The notes under the pieces are model-generated. The model saw only the letters and a list, made by a program, of their open reading frames with translations, was not told the DNA's origin and made no database searches. The translations under genes and the position numbers were made by a program. From contig CM119270.1 of assembly GCA_051294375.1 (NCBI GenBank), forward strand, positions 9,931,205 to 9,995,204: DNA of 64,000 nucleotides, read 5' to 3'. Of this stretch, positions 1 through 64,000 are shown piece after piece (position 1 is the stretch's first letter; each line of letters begins with the position of its first letter). Source of the DNA: Paraspadella gotoi. Lineage: Eukaryota > Animalia > Chaetognatha.

Positions 1-572
1 TTTTCGTTTTAAGGCAATTCCGTTGACGCATTGCTTGCGTCTGCTGATGGAGGATTTGGTCTTTCCGTGGCTGAGGCGAGTCTCACGTTTATATCATAAA
101 TCATTTAGAAAAGTTTTTCAATTTTATTTTCAAGAGATGCTGCGGATTTCGAGGCGGCGGCATCGTGAAAGGCATCGTCACGGTCGTTGTCATAATTTAT
201 ATAAAAATATATCATCGCAGGAGTATCAAGCCACCAAAATCGAATCGGATCGGAGGCTTGGGCGAAATGGAATCGCCGAATCCTGATTGGTCAAGCACGA
301 ACGGAATCGACCAATCAGCTTGCAGAATCATTGAATTGTAAATTTTACCCACGTTGCCGATCCTCTTCCCAAGATATAAATAGACTTAGCTTGTTCTAGT
401 TTCAGTAGAATTGATCAAGACTCCTGCGCGCGTCTCACCGTCACCTTTATTCTCAGAATAAAACTTCTTCTTCTTCTATATAAAATAGAATATATATATA
501 GCTAATAATATTTTGTGCCGCTCTTATTTTTAAAAAGTAATATATGGTGGAGTAAAATCTACCAATTCATCA

Positions 573-645
573 GCGGCCATTGGTGCCGGAGGCAAGTCAT
601 TCGCCTCCCAACCCAAAGGTCCGGGGATCTAGCCTGGTGATCGCC
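573..645 (+). ncRNA. tRNA-derived (Gly-like) Pol III head of family 1; not a functional tRNA
   Basis: Acceptor-like GCGGCCA/TGRTCGC, A-box-like TGGTGCCGGAGG, B-box GGTTCTAGYC in sister copies, TCGCCTCCCA reminiscent of tRNA-Gly; anticodon stem does not pair. Confidence 0.6.
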
Positions 646-891
646 TAGCAGTTAAGAGGGACTTCCGAACACATCATCAACAACAACACTTTCAGGCAAC
701 ATGCCTCAACCTGTTGATGCACTTTCCACCAACAACAATTCACAGAAGAGAAGCAAAAGTCTTCTCCCTATGGGAGTGGGGATGTATGGTGGACTAAAAT
801 CTACCAACCGTTTATCAGCGGCCATTGGTGCCCGAGGCAAGTCATTCGCCTCCTAACCCAAAGGTCCGGGGTTCTAGTCCGGTGGTCGTCT

Positions 892-958
892 AGAGGGATG
901 GGGCGCTTAATCCGCCTGTAACAGGGTGTTACCGCCTGATCCGAAGCTCAGGGATTGC
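892..958 (+). ncRNA. Type-P5 twister ribozyme fold, family 1 (5' P5 strand deleted in this copy)
   Basis: GAGG-GATGG-GGCGCT-T^AA-TCC-GCC-TGTAAC(loop)GTTAC-G-CCTGA-TCCGAAGC-TCAGG-GATTGC; predicted cleavage 908/909. Confidence 0.7.
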
Positions 959-1010
959 TTATATTGAACGGTTCTGTCACTAACATTTATTTTTTAAATT
1001 TTTATTCTAG

Positions 1011-2803: not shown

Positions 2804-3093
2804 TGTGGCGGTATATTCACACCGCCTCACGTCCACCATCCTACAGCCAAATCCATTGGCTCAGAGGGGGATCACACCATCCCAAGTGTAGTGTTCCATC
2901 CACAGTCCTAATGACTTCCCTCTGCGTTGGCAAAGCGAGACCGTCCTAGGGTAACCGCGCCAGTGACTGGAAGCGTCACTGAGGGTCAGAAGCCCCCAAA
3001 GCCAATAGCGAGATGCCCCATCCCAATGGGCATCACAGGCAACCCGGCTGTTGCCATAAGTGGTGAGCCCTACTATCGAACACGCAGCCTTCT
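2804..3093 (+). mobile_element. Twister-retrozyme-like family 2 copy (interrupted by a TIR element at 3094)
   Basis: Homologous to 18493-18725, 20058-20687(-) and 27042-27486; A-box-like TGGCTCAGAGGG 2857-2868, B-box-like GTTCCATCC 2893-2901. Confidence 0.88.
2926..3006 (+). ncRNA. Type-P5 twister ribozyme fold, family 2
   Basis: P5 GTTGGC/GCCAAT; AAA; P2' GCGA; GACCG; P1 TCCTAGGG; T^AA; P2 CCGC; GCC; P3 AGTGAC/GTCACT; G; P4 (A)GGG/CCC(C); L4 TCAGAAGC (TCGG in sister copies); predicted cleavage 2952/2953. Confidence 0.8.
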
Positions 3094-10829: not shown

Positions 10830-11768
10830 CAACTTGCATACTTTTTTTCAACTGCAATTTTTTTCAACTGCATAATTTTTTAACTTGCATAATTTGGGTT
10901 GTTGTGGTTTTAACTGCATAACTTTTTTTAACTTGCCATAATATTAACTTATATATATATATATTTTTATACTTGCATAATTTATATCTATAATTTTTCA
11001 ACTCGCATAATTTTTTCAACTCGCATATTTTTTTAATTTGCATAAATTTTTCAACTTGCATAATTTTTTTAACTTGCATAATTTTTCCAATTTGCATAAT
11101 TTTTTAATTTGCATAATTTTTTAACTTGCATAATTTTTCAACTTGCATAATTTTTTTCAACTTGCATAATTTTTTCAATTTGCATAATTTTTTTAACTTG
11201 CATAATTTTTTTAACTTGCATAATTTTTTCAATTTGCATAATTTTTTAAACTTGCATAATTTTTTTGAATTTGTATAATTTTTAAACTTGCATAATTTTT
11301 TAAATTGCATAATTTTTTCAACTTGTATATTTTTTTAACTTGCAGAATTTTTTAATTTGCATAATTTTTTCAACTTGCATTATTTTTAACTCTGTATAAT
11401 TGTTTCAACTTGCTATAATTTTTTCAACTTGCATAATTTTTTCAACTTTCATAATTTTTTCAACTTGTATGATTTTTTTAACTTGCATAATTTTTTAATT
11501 TGCATAATTTTTTAAATTGTATCTATTTTTCAACTTGTATAATTTTTAAACTTGCATAATTTTTTCAATTTGCATAATTTTTTCAACTTGCATTATTTTT
11601 TAACTTGCATAATTTTTCAACTTGCATAATTTTTCAATGCCATAATTTTTTCAACTTGCATAATTTTTTTAACTTGTATAATTTTTTTAACTGCATATTT
11701 TTTTTAATTTGCATAATTTTTTAATTGCATAATTTTTTCAACTTGCATAATTTTTTCAACTTGCATAA
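10830..11768. repeat. Tandem array of ~18-19-bp units (AACTTGCATAATTTTTTC)n
   Basis: About 50 visible units; related to the HINE internal unit AACTTGCATAATTTGGTC. Confidence 0.9.
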
Positions 11769-12822
11769 TATAGCAGTCAGTATTACTAAAAAAAAAAGAA
11801 GTTATAAAATTATTCTAATTGAGAAGGATACAACTGACCAGTAGCTAATAAAAGCATCATGAACAATTAATTAAAAACTATGTTTATTATGCTAAAAAAA
11901 ATTCAAAGTTATAAATTTTTTCATATATTTAATTATTTAAATTATTTATTTTCTATATCAAAACATAATCGTAATAAACTTCCTATATATGTATTTGAAG
12001 GCCTATATTAGGTAGGTAAGTCCCTTATAATATAAAATTTTTCTTCAATCATTTGGCATAGTTATAATTTTTTTTAATTTAAATTATTTGAAAAAAATTA
12101 AAATAATATTTTAATAAAGAAAATTAATTACAACTATTAAAGATAGAATAATGGTTATGGACTCAAAACGAAAGGAAATTGTTCATAGATTATAGATGAT
12201 GCATGATATTTTCATTTTTAAAAAAATTTAAACCATTTTTTAATTTTTTTTATTCTACTTTATTGATTTTATATAGCTAATTTTAATATTAATTTTAAAA
12301 AAAACTGTCATTAGGAAAAATTTGTTTACCCTTTTTTTGTGTAGCCCAAAGGTCCGGAAACATATCCCGGGACATCTCATTCTTGTGCACTCGATGCCGA
12401 TTAAATCGATGTAAAAAGGAACCGTGTATAAATATAATCACTGCGAAAATTAAAAAACATAAAATTATTTTTTTTACAAATTTAATGCTTCACTGATGGT
12501 ATGTTGTTCATAATTGACTTTTCGTATGTAACTTTCACTACGCCTTAATGGTCACGTGACCAATTTCCACCAATCACAGATCGCAATTTAAGATTCTTTT
12601 AAAAATTTTAAAATTTGCAGTAGATCCTGAATATTTTTTTGGAATTTATTATTGTGAAATCAAATAAAACTACATTGGGTAAAGGAATCACCGACAGGCA
12701 ACATATTTAGAAAAATTATATGTGCATATGATCCGCCCTAGGCCTGTCTATTGTACAATTTACACGAAAACGTGTTTAAAGAAAAGTCAAAACAATTGTA
12801 AAACAAATACTTGTAATTGTTA

Positions 12823-14354: not shown

Positions 14355-15038
14355 AACAAGTTTGAGCAAACAATGTCGGATCTGCCTACGATAATTAAGT
14401 GGTAATAAGCTAACTTGGTTAACTTGCATAATTTAATCAACTTGCATTATTTGGTCAACTAGCATAATTTGGTCAACTGACATAATTTTGTCAGCTGGCA
14501 TAATTTGGTCAACTGACATAATTTGGTCAACTGACAAAATTTGGTCAACTGACAAAATTTGGTCAACTTACAAAATTTGGTCAACTGACAAAATTTGGTC
14601 AACTGACAAAATTTGGTCAACTGACATAATTTGGTCAACTGACATAATTTGGTCAACTGACTTAATTTGTTTAACTGACTTAATTTATTTAACTGATTTA
14701 ATTTGTTTAACTGACATAATTTGGTTAACTGTCATAATTTGTTCAACTGACATAATTTGGTAAACTGACATAATTTGGTTATATCCATCTCAATCACAGT
14801 TTCCTACCTACACACAAAATTTCATACCAATCCATCCATCCAATCACGAGTAATTGGAGTTTTTTGCTAAGGGTGGACGGACGAAAGGACGGATGGATGG
14901 ACATTTTTTTGCATAATTTATCATAGTTCGAGGTTCTGTTATGATAATAATTATTTACCGACAATATTTTGGGGTGGGACCGACGGACCGACAAAGTGAA
15001 TTATAGAGTCGGAATCTGCTGATTAGCAAATCTGACTA
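14355..15038 (-). mobile_element. HINE/DINE-1-like (Helentron-associated) element with 18-bp internal array
   Basis: 5' hairpin of the AGTCGGATCTGC-TTATCA-GCAGATCCCGACT type, GTCC microsatellite, 3' subTIR GCAGATCCGAC plus GTTTG-CT-CAAAC stem-loop, T-rich insertion site; array (CATAATTTGGTCAACTGA)n at ~14415-14780. Confidence 0.8.
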
Positions 15039-18492: not shown

Positions 18493-18725
18493 TATGGTGG
18501 TATATTCACACCACCTCACGTCCTCGATCGTTCAGCCAATACCATTGACTCAGAGGGGGGACACACCATCCCAGGCGTTGCGTTCCATCCACAGTCCTAA
18601 CGACTTCCCTCTGCGTCCTAGGGTAACCGCACCAGTGACTGGATGCGTCACTGAGGGTCGGAAACCCCCAAAGCCAACAGTGAGATGCCCCATCCCAATG
18701 GGCATCACAGGCAACGCGGCTGTTG
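18493..18725 (+). mobile_element. Family 2 copy with 17-nt deletion through the ribozyme core
   Basis: ctgcgt[tggcaaagcgagaccgt]cctaggg; deletion between CGT microhomologies. Confidence 0.85.
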
Positions 18726-18970: not shown

Positions 18971-20057
18971 TAAAAACTACTGCGCTTTTATAGTTTTGGC
19001 TGGGACTTACCGTTTTTTTTAAATAAAAATTATTATGAATTACAATGAAGTATTATAAAAGTGTGCCATCATAGTAAGTTAAAAATTTAGATATGGCTTC
19101 TTATCTTGAAATAGCTTTGATATTTTCTTATACATTTGTTGTTTTAATTTTTTTGTTTGAATTTCCACTTCATTATTATTTACTGCAATATGCCAAATGA
19201 GATTATAGTACTCATTATAATATCCAAATTAGTATATAGAAATGCTTTAATCTAATTTACATATTGCAGAATTTAATATTGAAGATGAAATTCAAAAAAA
19301 TTTTTTAAATCTATAATAAAAATGGGAACTCCAAATAACTTTTTAATGTACTAATTCATAAGAAACTATAAAATATAACGTTCAAGAACATTCAAAATTC
19401 AAATTTTTAAACCAAAAAATCAAGAAACAAAAGACACAAACGTTTAATGGACTCATCAATAAAATATTATGAACTAATTCATAAGAAACTATAAAATACA
19501 AGAACAAATACAAATACAAGAACGTTCAAAATTCAAATTTTAAACCAAAAAATATGAAAACAAAGACAAAAACAAAAAAATAAAGCATAAACGAAAAACA
19601 ACGTTAATAAAAACAAGAACAAAATAAAAAATATAAAGCATAAATGAAATATACCTAAAATGTATAATTATAATGTGTTAAAGTAAAGGCAAAAAATAGG
19701 AATTTTTTTTTATAAAAAATTTTTAATAATCGTAAAACGTCAAGGTTTTATTTTTATAAAACGTCATTATAAGTATTTAATGCTTAGTGTATAAATATAC
19801 CAAAAATTTATAATAAAATGTGTTAAAGTAAAGGGCAGAGGACCACAATGCTATTAATAGAATAAAAAACTACAATCAATATATTATATATCTACATATA
19901 TACAACACACATATACAGTACATATATATATAAGCACGCAAATCAACAGAAAGGAGACACTTATAAAAACTAAAGACGCTCAATAAAAAACAAAGAAGAA
20001 AAAAGACGCTAAAACGAAATGAGACCTACAAGAGACGCTAAAAAACAAATGAGTATC

Positions 20058-20687
20058 TTATGCAACAGGTTGCTGTGATGGCATTGGGATGGGCATTTAC
20101 TGTTGGTTGGGGGCTTAACGACTCATAGCATCCAGTACTGGCGCGGACCAGGCGGTCCGCTTTGCAAGCAAGATGGGATCATTAGGACTGTGGATGGATA
20201 TAAGTGGGATGTGTGCCACCCTGAGCCAATGTTTGGCTGAACGATCGTGGAGTGAGCGGTTGTGTATATACCCCACAGGATCGGCAAGACTCACTCAGTC
20301 CTCAAGCCTGAGAGGTGTTGGACAGACTGGTACCAAGTGGGAGAGAGAGGAGAGAGCTGCAGTTGTGGGGGCATATCGGTTTGTCGTAGCGTACCCCAGG
20401 GGCATAGGCGTTTGTCTACTACCCAATCAGCAGGCAATAGCTTTATACTAAATTCTTTCATATACTCACCCACTTTGCAACAGCCTTGCTGTATCCCATT
20501 GGGATGGGGCATCCTCAACTGTTGGCTTTCTTCCACCCTCATTACCCATCCATCACTCCCTTACCTACTCTCGCTTTGCAACCAAAAGGAAGTGCAAAGG
20601 ACTGTTGATTGGAACAATATGCCTGGGTTTTTCCCACCTACCAAATATTTGGCTGAACATTTGGATGGAGGCTGTGAATAACCGCCA
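20058..20687 (-). mobile_element. Family 2, degenerate head-to-tail tandem (~1.5 units)
   Basis: cattgggatggg(g)cat at ~20082 and ~20497; tttggctgaac at ~20232 and ~20648 (period ~415 nt). Confidence 0.75.
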
Positions 20688-21357
20688 AAAATATCAACGT
20701 ATCACGTATCACGCTAATAAAAACAAAGAAAATAAAAAATAAAAAGACGCTAATAAAAATAATGAATAATAATAATAAAAACAAAGATGCTAATAAACAT
20801 ACCACATAAAAATAAAAATGTGGTCCCACAATACCTACAATACATCTAAAATTTCATTCAAGATAAAAAATTTTTAAGATGAGGAAATGAAATTTATTTG
20901 AATAAGTAAAAAAAATATTTGGAAGTCAAAAATATCATAGTCGTTAACTGATTATTGTCAACTATATATTTTGTTAATAGAGATTATAATTTTTTGACCG
21001 TTATTATTGAAAATAGTTTAGCCTTATAGCGACGAGTTTTCATTTCATACAATCAATATCAATCTCATTAATTTTCAATAATATGCAAAAAAATAAGGTT
21101 TTCAACCTCATTTTGAACTAGATGAACAAAAGACTTCAGTCTTATTTCAATTGAAAAAAAAATAGAAAGTTAATTGATGCTTAATCACACTCTAATAAAA
21201 CAATTTTATTTTTATCACGCCACTTTTTTTTAATACAAAATCCCAAATTTATTTCCGAGATTTTCGTGGATTTTTATTTTTTACCTTCTAAAAACTTTTA
21301 TTATTATTTTATTATTCTCTCTATATTTCTCTCTCAATCAACTCTCTGTCGCTCTCT

Positions 21358-25054: not shown

Positions 25055-25460
25055 AACAAGTTTGTGCAAACAATGTCGGATCTGCCTACGATAATTAAGT
25101 GGTAATAAGCTAACGTGGTCAACTTGCATAATTTAATCAACTTGCATAATTTGGTCAACTGACATAATTTGGTTAACTGACTAAATTTGGTCTACTGACA
25201 TAATTTGGTCAACTGACATAATTTGGTCAACTGACATAATTTGATCAATTAAGATAATTTGGTCAACCGGCATAATTTGGTCAACTGGCATAATTTTATC
25301 AACTGGCCTAATTTGGTCAACTTGCATAATTTGGTCAACAGGCATAATTTGGTGAACTTGCAGAACTTGATCAACTTGCAGAATTTGGTCAACTGGCATA
25401 ATTTGGTCAACTTTAAGAATTTGGTCAACTGGCATATTTTTGTCAATTGGCATAATTTGG

Positions 25461-25491
<31 letters not shown>

Positions 25492-27041: not shown

Positions 27042-27486
27042 TAAGTGGTGAACCCTACCATCGAACACGCAACCTTCTCAGGATATGCTACGACAAACGC
27101 CTATGCCCCCACAACTCGCGCTCTCTCTCTCTCTCTCTCTCCCACTATGGTAACAGTCCTGTCAGACACCTCTCAGACTTGAGGAACCTGAGTGATGTCT
27201 TGGCCCGGGGATCCTGTGGTGGTATATTCACACCAACTAACGTCCACGATCGTTCAGCCAATACCATTGGCTCAGAGGGGGAACACACCATCTCAGGCGT
27301 TGTGTTTAATCCACACTCCACACAGTCCACAGTCCTAACGACTTTCCTCTGCGTTGGCAAATCGAGACCGTCCTAGGGTAACCGCGCCAGTGACTGGATT
27401 CGTCATTGAAGGTCGGAAGCCCCCAAAGCCAACAGTGAGAAGCCCCATCCCAATGGGCATCACAGGCAACCCGGCTGTTGCCATAA
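27042..27486 (+). mobile_element. Family 2, one complete unit (445 nt) with terminal TAA redundancy
   Basis: Starts TAAGTGGTGAACCCTACC and ends GTTGCCATAA; these two ends are contiguous in the 2804-3093 copy (TTGCCATAAGTGGTGAGCCC). Confidence 0.9.
27353..27433 (+). ncRNA. Type-P5 twister ribozyme fold, family 2 (T1 intact)
   Basis: GTTGGC-AAA-TCGA-GACCG-TCCTAGGG-T^AA-CCGC-GCC-AGTGAC..GTCATT-G-AAGG-TCGGAAGC-CCCC-AAA-GCCAAC; predicted cleavage 27379/27380. Confidence 0.8.
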
Positions 27487-32146: not shown

Positions 32147-33374
32147 TAGTCGGATCTGCTTATCAGCAGATTCCGACCCTATAAATCACTTTGTCGGTCC
32201 GTCGGTCCCACCCCAAAATATTGTCGGTAAATCATTATTATCATATCAGAACGTCGAATTATGATAAATTATGCAAAAAAATTCCATCCGTCCGTCCGTC
32301 CAATTACTCGTGATTGGATGGATGGATTGGTATGAAATTTTGTGTGTGGGTAGGAAACTGTGTGATTGAGATGGATATGAAGTTTCGATGGAATCGTCCG
32401 AGTGGAAATTGGTTTAAATGGAAAAAACAAAAAAATCTATTTCACTATTTGAACGCCAATTGCTCATGAGTGGATAGGGCAAGTGACTTGATATTTGTAT
32501 GATGGTAGGAAAGTGAGTAATTGAGCTGGATATAAAGTTTCGATGGAATCGTGCGAGTAGAAATGAGTTAAAATGGAAAAAAACAAAAATCATATTTACT
32601 TGAAACATTTTTACTTAAATTTACTCATAATTATTATGTTTATTAAAAATAGTGAAACAAGTAATTTGCAAATTTTCATAGACAAATTGAAAATGAATTT
32701 TGTTTGTGGGTAGGAAAGTATGTGATAAAGCTGGATATAAATTTCTTGATGGAATCGTAGGAGTGGAAAAGAGGTCAAACCAAAAGACACATTTATTTGA
32801 ATTTTTTAAAGTTTCTCTCTCTCTATCTCTCTCTGATTGATTGATTGATTGATTGACCAAATTATGCCAATTGAAAAAAATATGCCAGTTGATCAAATTC
32901 TGCAAGTTGACCAAATTATGCCAGTTGACCAAATTATGCCAGTTGACCAAATTCTGCAAGTTGACCAAATTATGCCAGTTGACCAAATTATGCCAGTTGA
33001 TAAAATTATGCCAGTTGATAAAATTATGCCAGTTGACCAAATTATGCCGGTTGACCAAATTATGTTAATTGACCAAATTATGTCAGTTGACCAAATTATG
33101 CCAGTTGACCAAATTTTGTCAGTTGAACAAATTATGTCAGTTAACCAAATTATATCAGTTAACCAAATTATGTCAGTTGACCAAATTATATCAGTTAACC
33201 AAATTATGTCAGTTGACCAAATTATGCAAGTTGATTAAATTATGCAATTTGACCAAGTTAATTATCATAATTATAATCATCATTATTATAATCATCATTA
33301 TTATCATAATTATTATCATCATCAATTATCATAATTATCATAGGCAGATCCGATATTGTTTGCTCAAACCTGTT
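32147..33374 (+). mobile_element. HINE/DINE-1-like element
   Basis: Same termini; 18-bp array ~32852-33257. Confidence 0.82.
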
Positions 33375-48321: not shown

Positions 48322-49441
48322 TTTTTTTTATTGTTTTTGAGCTGAAGAAAATGATGATGAATCGAGAAAAAATGTAGTTGAACAGAAGAAACCAGTTTTT
48401 GATTTTCGCTGTCTTTAAAACGAAATTGCGTCAGGTGACCGGGTTTTGTGTTTTGACTTCGTTAGGGGGTGTCAAGAGAATTTTGACCCAGGTCATGGTT
48501 ATGAAGCTTGGAGATGATGAGATGGTGAGATGGAAAATATAAGGTTTTAGTTTAGGTTATAAAACTACTAAACGATAAAAATAATCTACTTAGACTTCTG
48601 AACATAGAACTGATTCTTCCTAAATCAGACACAAATTTACTAAATTTGCTGAATATTTCGATTAACGAATCTTCTTTGTGATAAAACGGAGATAGATGCA
48701 AAACCTCACGATCTTCGTCGATCAAATGTCACTCCCTTCCTTTCAGGGGGCGTCATGGAATTTCGTCGTCGCCCACATTTTTTTGTCCTTCATTCGGAGG
48801 CGGAATAAGTTTGATATTGAAAAGACAATGAGATAAAAGTCGCGAAACACTTTTCTTCTTTTTTATAATCGGGAAGTTTTGAATTTCCGGGAAGTGAGAA
48901 ATAAGAAATCCGCTCCATCTGTTATCTTTATTAACAATTTATTAAAAACGGAATCAGTTTCATCGGCTAATCGGTTTATCAATTTTTATTCGGGGGAGGA
49001 GGTTGGGGGGGCAGGTGGAGGGTGTTTGGGGGGGTAGGCGGAGATTGGGGGGGTGGTAGGAAGGGGTTGGGGCGGCTGGGGGTGGAGGTTGTGGCGGTGG
49101 GAGGAGGTAGGAGGGAGGTAAAGAAGAATGTTGAGCGTCTCGTGTTTCTCATTAAAATTTTTCTTCGTTCTGGTTCCAAGGAAAAAAAACTTTGTAAGCA
49201 ACAGATTAAGTTTCCCCTTTTATTTTTGTTTTTTAAAAAAATGGTCTTATGACGACAACGACGACGACGACGACGACTTCGACAAGGATGGCATCGTAGA
49301 ATGAAGAGAGCAGTATCCATCAGAAGATAACTTAATTTATGTAAGTTTTTAGTTTTTTATGTTCGGATTTAGGATTAGGTGAGGGTTAGTGGTTACTAAC
49401 TGGTGAGGGTTGGGGATTGATTTATAGGTTCGGCTACAGAC

Positions 49442-49540
49442 TGAAGAGACAGTAATTATTGTTATGTGACAGAACCGTTCAATATAAGAAGTCACTGAGC
49501 TTCGGATCAGGCTGTAACACCGAGCTACAGGCGGGTTAAG
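49442..49540 (-). mobile_element. Family 1 fragment: 3' half of twister plus tail
   Basis: CTTAACCCGCCTGTAGCTCGGTGTTACAGCCTGATCCGAAGCTCAG...ATTACTGTCTCTTCA. Confidence 0.85.
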
Positions 49541-50549: not shown

Positions 50550-51066
50550 TCCCTCTTAACTGCTAGGCAACTACCGGGCTAGAACCCCGGACCTTTGAGT
50601 TGGGAGGCGAATGACTTGCCTTCGGCACCAATAGCCGCTGATGAATGGTTTAGTCCACCATACATCCCCCCCTCCCGTAGGGAGAAGTCTGTTGCATCTC
50701 TTCAGTGAATTGTTGTTGTTGGTAAAAAGTTCATCACCAAGTTGAGGCATGTCGCCTGATGTGTTGTTGGCGGAAAGTGCATCGACAGGTTGAGGCATGT
50801 CGCCTGAAAGCGTCGTTGTTGCTCTTGTATTCGGAAGTCGAGCTCACCAATGAAGAGACAGTAATTATTGTTATGTGTTAATGACAGAACTGTTCAATAT
50901 AAACGGTCCCTGAGCTTCGGAACAGGCTGTAACACCGAGTTACAGGCGGGTTAAGCGCCCCGTTCCTCTTAACTGCTAGGCGACCACCAGGCTAGAACCC
51001 CGGACCTTTGGGTTAGGAGGCGAATGACTTGCCTGATGAATAGTTGGTGGATTTTAGTCCACCATA
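50550..51066 (-). mobile_element. Twister-retrozyme-like family 1, ~1.3-unit copy (head - twister - tail - spacer - head)
   Basis: Unit period 404 nt here (TATGGTGGAC at 51066 and again at 50662); block order is a circular permutation of 543-986. Confidence 0.88.
50903..50976 (-). ncRNA. Type-P5 twister ribozyme fold, family 1
   Basis: GCAGTT-AA-GAGG-AACGG-GGCGCT-T^AA-CCC-GCC-TGTAAC-TCGGT-GTTACA-G-CCTGT-TCCGAAGC-TCAGG-GACCGT; presumed catalytic G is A in this copy; predicted cleavage 50953/50952. Confidence 0.72.
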
Positions 51067-56322: not shown

Positions 56323-56326
<4 letters not shown>

Positions 56327-56540
56327 GAAGAGACAGTAATTATTGTTATGTTTAATGACAGAACTGTTCAATATAACGGTCCCTGAGCTTCGGAAACAGG
56401 CCTGTAACACCGGATTACAGGCGGGTTAAGCGCCCCGTTCCTCTTAACTGCTAGGGCGACCACCAGGCTAGAACCCCGGCCTTGGGTTAGGAGGCGAATG
56501 ACTTGCCTGATGAATAGTTGGTGGATTTTTGTCCACCATA
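56323..56540 (-). mobile_element. Family 1 copy inside the second unit of the 5.4-kb duplication
   Basis: Near-identical to 50848-51066. Confidence 0.85.
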
Positions 56541-61045: not shown

Positions 61046-63559
61046 TCCTTCTCTTCAAAAACATTTTTTCCCAACAAGGCCGCAGGTACAACGCGTCTCA
61101 TGTAGATCAATAGGTCAAAGAGAAAAGTAGGTTTACTGTATTATGGGCAAAAGCTTTATTAGGTTAGAGCCAAACTTGTCAATGGGGTGGGTCAGAAGTT
61201 TGATTTGGGAACCTTTCCAAATGAAACTTCATACATTTCTGAGAAAAACTTTCAATGGAGCAAAATTTCTAAACTGGCAAGAAGCATTAGTAATTACATT
61301 TTTTAATATTTATTTATAGATAGGAAATGTCAAAAAATTTTTTTTTGAATTTTTTATTTTTAAAAGCAGATTCAAATAGCTTATGAAGTTATTTACACAA
61401 AGTATAATCTCTTTTTCAATATTTTGATGATAAGTGGGTTTAAAATTGAGAAAAACCTTAAAAAATCATTCATCATCATCATCATCTGATGATTTTAGCA
61501 GTTTTTACTAATTTTAGTAATAAAACATCAAAATTTTAAACAGTTGTAATTATATTTTTTGCTTAACTTTTTAAGCTCTATCAGAATCAATTAAAAAAAC
61601 TTAAAACATCCACCAAAAAATTTTTGACATTATATAGCAATATAATAATATTAATTAGCGAATTACTCATGTTTCGGAACATCTTTGCCAAAAAATATTT
61701 TAACACAATAATTAATACCAATAGGATTAGTTTATGCTGTTCCCATTAAAATTTGAATTTGGTCGGCTACCGCTAATTAGGTTTGTTAATTTGTCGGACG
61801 ACGGCCTCCGACCCGACAGCGAAAACCCATTATGCGATAGAAACCAGTGTTGTGAGCGTTTCCAATGGAAACCTAACCCCGCGGGGAAAATTCGGGTGAG
61901 AAAGGGAAAGTAAAAGGAAAGAGACAAGGAAAGAAGAAAATTAGGGAGGGGAGAAATGGCAAATAATATATAAGGGCCAAAAGAAATAAAAAGAAAATGA
62001 TATTTTAAAAATCCTGTGTACGAACACTTGCCGTGTGCTCGTATAGCCGCCTCTGCTTTCGCCGCCGTCGCGCCGCTACGGAGGACCGTCGTCCTCCACG
62101 TCCCTTGCTGACGCCTCCGGAAAGTGGGCGTGGCCGCTCTGGCGCCGTTTGCGCATGCGCCGAAAACGTCGGCTCGCCGGTGATGAGAGAGTAATCGGCG
62201 AGGTTGTCGTCACCCGAGTGTGGTCGAATGGGATTGGCCACAAGTCCGTCCACAAGTCTATGACGGAGCTAGTCTGAAACCACGAGCGTGTCCACGAGTC
62301 CCGAGTGTGGTCTCACAGTGGGCTCTATGGCCACAATGACTCTGTCTTGAAAACGGTATCGAAAGGTGACGTGACGTGACGTGAAGTGTCCTAAAGCCTC
62401 GTAAAAGGCAGTTGGTGACGGGTGGAAAGTCCTTTAGAATCTAATTGGCCTAGATATATCTGGTAAGAAAAGAAAATAGGAGTGTTAATCTCCTAAGAAG
62501 AGGAAAAAAGACATCTATCGGCAGAAACGGTAAATAACAAAAGGCAAACAAATAAATGGGGAAAAGGGGGACATATCTCTACCCCCACCTCCAGCGCTCT
62601 ATCAGAAGGCGGTGGAAAAACTCCAACGAAAACCACTCTGATCTGGAAGGGCAGTGTTAAAGCATTGGCCAAGAGGAAGTGAAAGAATCAAGAAAGGGAA
62701 GAGAAGAATCAAGATAGATGTAAGAAGANNNNNNNNNNNNNNNNNNNNNNNNNGAATAAGATCGAGGGAAAAAGAAAAAATAAATAAAATGTCAAAATAA
62801 ATGAAAAAAAATAAAAGGGGAAAAGGAAGAAAATGTTTTTATTATTGTATTTATGCCTGTCAGAAACCGCTTTACTTTTAATTTTATGTGATTGAATCTT
62901 TCTAACGTTTGAATGTCACAATATCAAAGTAAATAAAGATCATCGAAATAAAATTTTCTTTTGAGCGTACGCGTCGAATTTCTAAACAGAACGATCAGTT
63001 GAGCAGACAATAAAAAAAAATAATTTCCAAATGGTAAAATCGAACGTTTCAAGATGGATACTACAAGCTAATAGATAAAAACGAATGGATAAAATTTTAA
63101 AAACGAGACTATAATACAACAGCATCCATGGAACAATTTCCGGTCTTTGGCTGCAATGTCGCAACAGAATCAGCTTCAATGTTCTTTCTGACGAGCGCCA
63201 GGCCGCGTCTGGCCCGCCGTAAGTCGGCGGGGGCGCGGACTTGGGCGCCTCGTCTCTTTTAAAGATCGTGGGTTGGTTCTCGTCTTTGCTAAAAATGGTT
63301 CTCCCCCGCCGGAATGAGCTCCGGCATCGAGGGGGAAGGAAGGAGCTGAGCAAGGGTTTCGGTGACCAAGAAAGGATCTGTTGTCGGTTGGCGCCACAGT
63401 TGTCGACAAAGTTGTTGGGCTTATTGTTTGAGACTCGCAAAATTTCACTGTTTTTTGTTTTACGGAAGTCACAAAACCGATAATCTTTCACCATCTTTTG
63501 CATCGACTGTACTAAACGAAAGTCGTCAAGTAAGTCAACGATATATGTACTATTTGGTA

Positions 63560-64000
63560 AATCTTCAACAATCTCGGCGGTCATGCGCGCGCAATCCACG
63601 TCCTCACCGCCTTTCCCATCTCTGGGTCCGATCAAAGTCCAGCCGAACATCGTATTGATGGCTACCGGCTGGTCTCGCGAACCTCGTCGAACCTCTCCAT
63701 CAATCCAAGTGTAGGCGTAGTTTGCCGGGAGGAGCACGCCGACCTCCTTGTCAGGGAGGTTGGGGAACGTTACCCCCTTGAGATGAGGCTTGTCGACCAC
63801 ATCTGCATCGCACGGCGGGAGGTCGTCCTCCGAAGTCAGTAAACATCCCACAATCGCTTTCCTGATAGAAAGAGAAAAAGTTCCATTAAGTGGTTCAATA
63901 TTAAAATCAGCAACTTTCTTGTCTACAATAACATCACTATCTAAAGTTTGAATTCTCATATTTACATCATTACAAGTTATACTTAGATCGTTGGCAATGT
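63560..64000 (-). mobile_element. BEL/Pao LTR-retrotransposon pol fragment (region after the aspartic protease)
   Basis: KPHLKGVTFPNLPDKEVGVLLPANYAYTWIDGEVRRGSRDQPVAINTMFGWTLIGP fits the Pao-type HL..l.fp.....v.lL..........r.G....P.A..T.fGW.l.Gp pattern; similarity is lost after ~63560. Confidence 0.8.

Follow-up and report, generated by a model that had tools for sequence, protein, structure and literature searches.

Short self-complementary P1 segments in LTR-borne twister-like motifs of two mini-retrotransposon families may allow dimer-assisted cutting

Hammerhead ribozymes with very short closing stems are described, in the available portions of the reports cited here, as partners in dimers: the axolotl retrozyme hammerhead HHR_Amex1, with 1 bp and a palindromic tetraloop, cuts 6% as a monomer and far more as a dimer (PMC7229834), and Penelope hammerheads, whose short stem III loops are palindromic, likewise form dimers (PMC6765202). 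Among invertebrate hammerheads, the majority cut alone (PMC7761336). The host ligase RtcB was further reported to circularise animal retrozyme RNA in vitro (PMC7229834). The motifs analysed here, from one stretch of 64,000 nt of Paraspadella gotoi DNA (the window), resemble the double hammerheads of ASBVd, axolotl and Penelope in a closing stem of 1-2 bp, a palindromic tetraloop, tandem copies and a predicted shared helix (PMC7229834, PMC6765202, PMC7761336), but differ from them in having a twister fold instead of the hammerhead fold and in standing in two LTR copies instead of long arrays.

Unlike the closing stem in this parallel, stem P1 of twister ribozymes is reported to be dispensable: as far as the available parts of the sources go, twisters without P1 cleave at a near wild-type rate (PMC5408937), and in natural twisters the length, stability and defects of P1 are without effect on cleavage (PMC11662667); the cleavage of P1-less twisters has also been called inefficient (PMC8501958). 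Twister dimers appear in the available part of PMC5408937 only as a crystal artefact, and that of PMC13725137 describes tandem ribozymes in RNA viruses without a twister dimer. Neither a dimer-dependent twister nor a twister-bearing TRIM was found in the literature searched, outside of which most subscription papers lie. When compared with RF02684, whose consensus has a P1 of 8 bp with a 4-nt loop and no P3, the window motifs are alike in the order and letters of GA, T1, U^AA, T2, L4, P2, P4 and P5, but their P1 has 6-8 nt and a P3 hairpin is present. A reduced P1 within a retroelement is likewise seen in the Schistosoma T-variant twisters of Perere-3 / RTE (PMC8501958); these, however, are of the open-ended P1 type, lie at the 5' end of autonomous non-LTR elements and take P1 partly from the target site, and no closed palindromic loop is described for them in the available part of that paper.

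As to the elements that carry the motifs, plant LTR retrozymes, according to the accessible portion of PMC4918200, are likewise non-coding and share the LTR-internal-LTR layout with one ribozyme per LTR, a PBS (here a PBS-like box), a PPT (here weak in family 2) and a predicted circle between the cut sites; 4-bp TSDs and solo LTRs are also shared, with the reservation that no matched TSD pair occurs in the window copies. They differ in carrying a type III hammerhead and a Met PBS, whereas the window elements have a twister-like motif, internal Pol III-like boxes, a Trp-like PBS and a shorter unit. Helenus TRIMs (TRIMp3, PMC10886601, available in part) are short animal TRIMs with tRNA-like A/B boxes in the LTR, a PBS, a PPT and a 4-bp TSD, to which the window elements offer A- and B-box-like words, a PBS-like box, a PPT that is clear in family 1 and weak in family 2, and no matched TSD pair, and their primers include tRNA-Trp, in line with the Trp-like PBS here. 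In contrast, the accessible part of that paper describes no ribozyme in Helenus, and its LTRs run TG..CA, whereas the window families run TA..CA and TG..TA and match the boxes in part. Six twister L4 words gave five matches in the Helenus supplement, none of them in a twister-like setting by eye. In the internal consensus of Helenus-3_EuAn-I (wasp), CTGA...GAAA words look by eye like part of a hammerhead-type motif (PMC10886601), and published Helenus families may hide further ribozymes.

The window motifs sit in the LTRs of two short non-coding mini-retrotransposon families. The first-pass annotation had assumed a multimeric transcript; a full element does place two motifs in one predicted transcript, but by its LTR-internal-LTR layout and not as a long multimer. 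Since each LTR holds one motif, a full element would have exactly two twisters, ~370-440 nt apart. LTR-internal-LTR layouts were located at 51066-50551, 540-990 and 20700-20047, all incomplete or degraded, and two intact motifs stand together in no window element.

Family 2 is represented on the plus strand by a 3' LTR (27215..27485) whose 5' LTR is missing and whose ends match the commonest of the loose contig ends listed. Upstream of its twister-like motif lie an A-box-like word (27268-27279) and a degenerate B-box-like one (27304-27312), both putative Pol III promoter elements, and the LTR is preceded by an internal region (27046..27214, +) that starts with a PBS-like TGG box (27046-27058) and has a weak purine run before the LTR. 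The LTR at 2804..3059 (+) carries a motif at 2926-3006 and is followed by a PBS-like box and an internal region cut off at ~3096, and that at 18495..18725 (+) lacks 17 nt over P5/P2/GA and keeps its P1 segment at 18616-18623. A degraded LTR-internal-LTR element on the minus strand (20047..20700) has broken motifs.

Family 1 comprises an element at 540..990 (+) with a partial 5' LTR, an internal region, a PPT (772-782) and a 3' LTR from 785, in which A-box-like (826-837, +) and B-box-like (871-879, +) words are accompanied by tRNA-like arms. On the minus strand, an LTR with both ends (50851..51066) contains a motif at ~50977-50903 whose general-base position, 50964, departs from the family; it continues into a PBS-like box (50849-50837), an internal region and a PPT (50676-50665) within 50551..50850, and a 3' LTR from 50662 to 50551 that breaks off immediately ahead of the P1 segment. 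The minus-strand LTR at 56325..56540 (P1 segment 56434-56429) is probably a local duplicate, since its flanks are shared with the 51066 copy. A further minus-strand copy (49433..49540) retains just the 3' half, running roughly from the predicted cut site to where the LTR ends; first-strand DNA copied from a cut RNA would have this span, and the case is a single one. The start of this copy at 49540, within 3 nt of the cut site, was considered as evidence of cutting and rejected because the upstream letters are still LTR-like. The family 1 LTR copies at 648-660 (+) and 50551 (-) end at the same point, within T1 and just before P1, and the 648-660 break looks like a deletion that joins the PBS region via a short common word.

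In both families a PBS-like TGG box stands 1-2 nt after the LTR, and 11 of its 13 letters equal the honeybee tRNA-Trp PBS of the Helenus supplement in a comparison made by eye. The PPT is clear in family 1, directly before the next LTR, and weak in family 2. The A and B boxes were found with one mismatch allowed, the B box reading GGTTC in family 1 and TGGCT in family 2, and ARAGORN found no tRNA. Both families are dispersed repeats whose ends are fixed: among the loose contig ends listed, most pile up at 27215 and 27485-89 in family 2 and at 51066 and 50851 in family 1; the majority letters of the flanks are ATAT-like at both ends, with a matched 4-bp TSD pair in no window copy. The LTR ends, TA..CA (51066/50851) and TG..TA (27215/27485), comprise one canonical and one TA end each. 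The two families do not match by BLAST and differ in the letters of T1, P3, P4 and P5, but share the LTR start and the PBS box; they are only two lineages, perhaps related. A lack of T4 runs in the elements was considered as a signal and discarded, being not significant against shuffles.

In the public run X1, 5564 contigs match family 2 and 5382 match family 1, and the summed depth is near 10^6 over the families as against 17-47 for the single contigs listed; this contig depth, which is no copy number as such, points to very many copies of both families. The variant table for family 1, complete down to 1%, lists nothing between 50939 and 50961, an interval that takes in the P1 segment, cut site, P2 and T2, and for family 2 no variant lies in 27363-27394 among those listed. 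Since 20 of 183 positions of family 1 are polymorphic, so that a clean 6-mer has a chance of 0.5 and a clean 23-mer one of 0.07, the constancy of the segment does not show selection. Under a second organism label (X10), family 1 is present in three contigs, for which no change within the segment is listed; this may be carry-over. Among 10 runs, one of them an RNA run only by guess, no RNA run was listed as holding the elements, which has no bearing on their expression. No relatives of the motifs were found in metagenome, prokaryote and viral scans of partial coverage.

The motifs follow the order P5-P2-GA-T1-[P1]-U^AA-P2-GC-P3-P4-L4-P4-P5, which is the type-P5 twister permutation, and the core letters GA, U^AA, GC and L4 U-C-N-N-A-A-G-C are present in P5 order. 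In the P5-type twister-like motif of family 2 at 27353..27433 (+), these are P5 (27353-58/27428-33), P2 (27362-65/27382-85), GA (27366-67), T1 (27368-70, with L4), the predicted cut 27379^27380, T2 (27386-87), P3 (27388-27408), P4 (27411-12/27421-22) and L4 (27413-20), with P2 and P4 weakened in this copy; the family 1 motif at 897-952 (+) has its predicted cut at 908^909 and an 8-nt gap over the 5' strand of P5. A search with the core pattern gave five window matches in the two families, compared with a mean of 0.22 in 200 block shuffles, of which 4 had at least two core matches, P3, P4 and P5 being left uncounted. The twister-like core is beyond chance, and two of the five core-matching copies deviate at the general-base letter. 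T1 and L4 read CGG and CCG in family 1 and CCG and CGG in family 2, both sides being changed and the pairing kept; T1 pairs at 3/3 positions in four copies and at 2/3 in the 2926-3006 motif, which has one T1 mismatch, and T2 has 2 bp. All of P5, P2, P3 and P4 appear in the unconstrained monomer fold of the 2923-3009 copy; P2 has only 2-3 bp with a C.A mismatch, and the stems are weaker in other copies. In place of the stable P1 hairpin of a type-P5 twister, 1-2 bp with positive energies were found. The Rfam twister gave no match in the window at the gathering threshold, at E<=5 or locally at E<=10, and the same library recovered 2 of 3 phage twister loci; the window motifs are natural twister-like motifs missed by Rfam. 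No third twister family was found within the window.

The P1 segment of family 2, UCCUAGGG at 27371..27378 (+), is self-complementary and has further copies at 2944-2951 and 18616-18623, the DNA letters TCCTAGGG being read at 27371-27378 and 2944-2951. That of family 1, GGCGCU at 902-907 (+; GGCGCT as DNA), has further copies on the minus strand at 50959-50954 and 56434-56429. The segments at 27371-27378, 2944-2951 and 902-907 are each flanked by GA-NNG and U^AA, and those of both families self-pair end to end with terminal G.U pairs, as the first-pass annotation had read them; three further copies exist beyond those it listed. For UCCUAGGG, a homoduplex energy of -10.0 kcal/mol was calculated for the full 8 bp and -11.0 kcal/mol at best, as against +2.7 kcal/mol for the cis hairpin of 2 bp and a CUAG tetraloop; for GGCGCU, the homoduplex has -8.3 kcal/mol and the cis hairpin, 1 bp with a GCGC loop, +5.6 kcal/mol. 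The bonus of the CUAG loop is small (3.7 kcal/mol, where the average is 4.1 kcal/mol; 60th of 256). Because the families have room for 2 bp plus CUAG and 1 bp plus GCGC, and because the letters of any stem necessarily complement each other, the extra palindrome, and with it the extra information, is confined to the four letters of the loop. A random 4-nt loop is palindromic with a chance of 1 in 16, or 0.14 when G.U is allowed, and palindromic tetraloops occur in 4 of 32 control twisters, two of the four being near-identical. Palindromes in two of two families then have a joint chance of ~0.004-0.02, or of 0.06-0.14 for the second given the first; picked after looking, they are suggestive and no proof. 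The family 2 segment also matches the PBS box of its family over 6 bp, which was set aside as being at chance level by a rough estimate.

To set the length of P1 against a norm, controls were drawn from pattern scans of viral contigs, which gave 550 core matches in 603 loci. Fifty-seven distinct control twisters passed the P2 and P4 checks with P1 unfiltered, the shortest P1 being 14 nt, and removal of three (two unstructured, one double parse) left 54 from 45 loci. The P1 segment was 14-42 nt long, with a median of 22, in all 54 of these phage P5-type twisters, so the window segments of 6 and 8 nt are unusually short; as phage motifs from partial scans whose patterns favoured CCN:NGG T1 letters, the controls give a norm and no limit. 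The earlier statement that there is no room for a normal P1 holds against these 14-42-nt controls, but family 2 does fit 2 bp and a tetraloop, and family 1 fits 1 bp. When a P1 of 3-13 nt was sought directly in all 744 loci, the core matched 211 times; P4 accompanied 8 of these matches, and P2 as well a single, marginal one. The viral scans for short P1, two of which covered 21 and 11 of 64 parts, yielded no convincing case; two further viral scans covered 46 and 40 of the 64 parts. With a loose pattern, 0 of 117 loci from 3/64 parts of the metagenome scan passed the helix filter, and none of the 21 loci of the prokaryote genome scan had a P4 of at least 3 bp. Six phage contigs (L368, L398, L443, L448, L376 and L389) carry 2-3 P5-type twisters within ~1.2 kb, each with a long P1 hairpin of its own.

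Four window copies, which are decayed, were modelled as they lie, with pseudoknots and Mg2+ outside the model. With a 30-nt spacer, the strand-swapped pair was favoured over two cis native folds by 4.0, 7.6, 5.5 and 6.7 kcal/mol, and with a 300-nt spacer by 4.0-6.7 kcal/mol; since any palindrome pairs in a co-fold, this gain speaks for feasibility only. The gap between native-compatible and free ensembles was 12.3, 6.6, 18.8 and 14.3 kcal/mol in the monomers and 10.4, 3.7, 16.2 and 10.9 kcal/mol per motif when swapped, compared with 0.6-9.0 (median 4.2) kcal/mol in the controls. The best-folding copy showed the shared P1 in its unconstrained dimer fold, its gap falling from 6.6 to 3.7, near the control median, whereas in the other three of four copies the swapped native fold still lay 10.4-16.2 kcal/mol above the misfolds, beyond the control maximum of 9.0; these copies may stay misfolded in the models partly because of private changes. 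For the GGGU of the 27 kb copy (27376-79), pairing with 27419-22 has a probability of 0.8. The shared P1 that had been suggested earlier is favoured in these folding models, with one correction: a 6-8-bp duplex between closed 6-8-nt loops should be impossible as a kiss, so the 5' halves would have to swap.

On this basis we tentatively propose, at somewhat less than even confidence, that the palindromic P1s let two LTR motifs pair and cut faster than a lone copy, an expected help from pairing and no absolute licence. Pol III would transcribe from the 5' LTR through both motifs; a single motif would fold weakly, and two motifs would swap their P5, P2 and T1 strands and share a P1 of 6-8 bp, such that in each core one copy would supply the P5, P2, GA and T1 strands and its partner everything else, in the style of double hammerheads. 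Two cuts would release a unit of 370-440 nt, whose ends may be held for ligation, as a single core would contain both the first motif's 3' half and its partner's 5' half; a host ligase could then make a circle bearing one weak twister, and a helper LTR retrotransposon could carry out reverse transcription from the PBS.

Both families are self-complementary despite differing letters and lengths, and the family 1 hexamer, worthless as a cis hairpin (+5.6), reaches -8.3 kcal/mol as a duplex; the axolotl retrozyme and the Penelope hammerheads offer a precedent. Against the proposal, there are only two lineages, ~400 nt of transcription would separate the folding of the first motif from the synthesis of the second, cutting on contact could also destroy co-packaged circles, and the family 2 layout of 2 bp plus a tetraloop is, by analogy, that of invertebrate hammerheads that cut well alone. 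A strict version, in which the twisters cut only as a pair and the one-twister circle is spared as the template for reverse transcription, appears unlikely. Such licensing with protection of the circle had been put forward in the first-pass annotation; the short P1, the self-complementarity, the two motifs of one predicted transcript, the folding models and the axolotl hammerhead's need for dimers partly support it, but its strict form is made less likely by the near wild-type cleavage of P1-less twisters and the harmlessness of P1 defects. As P1-less constructs have free ends and the window motifs a closed loop, this dispensability may not carry over.

Each twister may instead work alone, with P1 shrunk as dispensable, the segment a small loop and the palindromes incidental, which we hold to be possible rather than probable. 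It would fit the reported dispensability of P1 (PMC5408937 and PMC11662667, in their available parts), the 2923-3009 copy, which forms P5, P2, P3 and P4 freely with its gap of 6.6 inside the control range, and the palindromic tetraloops of 4 of 32 ordinary controls, given a feature picked after looking. It fits less well with a P1 shorter than that of any control, with palindromes in two of two families at a joint chance of ~0.004-0.02, and with the small bonus of the CUAG loop. Palindromes in retroviral and Ty1 RNAs, linked to RNA dimerisation and packaging, offer another parallel: the segment could be a dimerisation or co-packaging signal for a helper particle, placed in a tolerant twister loop without control over cutting. 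This would explain the palindromes while P1 stays dispensable, and packaging of the RNA would follow from the LTR, PBS-like and PPT features of the elements. We consider it distinctly unlikely, however: the segment abuts the cut site without spare letters for a kissing complex, so that pairing would probably remodel the ribozyme anyway, and it is partly buried in cis misfolds in three of the four modelled copies.

It is quite improbable, in our judgement, that the short P1 and its G-rich neighbours simply damp or kill the ribozyme, so that uncut transcripts keep their terminal repeats for ordinary LTR replication and the motif is an attenuated end-former or a relic. The monomer gaps of 12.3, 14.3 and 18.8 kcal/mol in three of four copies and the GGGU pairing of the 27 kb copy are consistent with damping, as is the finding that, among the loose ends listed, the commonest contig ends lie at the LTR ends, away from the cut site; Helenus elements, too, are described without ribozymes in the available text. 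Yet two diverged families keep the core letters and four helices, their respective T1 pairings being CGG:CCG and CCG:CGG, and private changes of the window copies inflate the folding gaps.

With regard to the proposed dimer-assisted cutting, activity in the pair but not in the lone motif would mean that the dimer gating of hammerheads had evolved once more in twisters, giving a copy-number switch for making stable RNA circles in a class whose P1 was thought dispensable. Should the palindrome be incidental, the range of LTR retrozymes would still widen, from hammerheads in plants to a Pol III-type TRIM with an LTR twister in an animal host.

Around the elements, no reverse transcriptase or integrase Pfam match was found among the 126 scanned of 352 open frames of at least 55 aa, and a 338-codon open frame (62985-63998, -), whose first half we take to resemble the protease region of BEL/Pao LTR retrotransposons, is without a Pfam match at E<=1. 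Several kb are duplicated locally, the copies lying ~5.5-5.7 kb apart (50851-51400/56325-56900 and 53575-54639/59248-60313), with a repeated ORF, AATT arrays and an LTR copy. Related 18-bp minisatellite arrays occur on both strands at 10831-11769, 14411-14779, 25116-25464 and 32853-33260 and may represent a mobile repeat. Three cytochrome P450 exons (1037-1162, 1801-1959 and 2291-2485, +), for which CYP17, CYP1A2 and CYP2R1 are the nearest solved structures, are closely preceded on their own strand by the family 1 element at 540-990 and closely followed by the family 2 copy at 2804.
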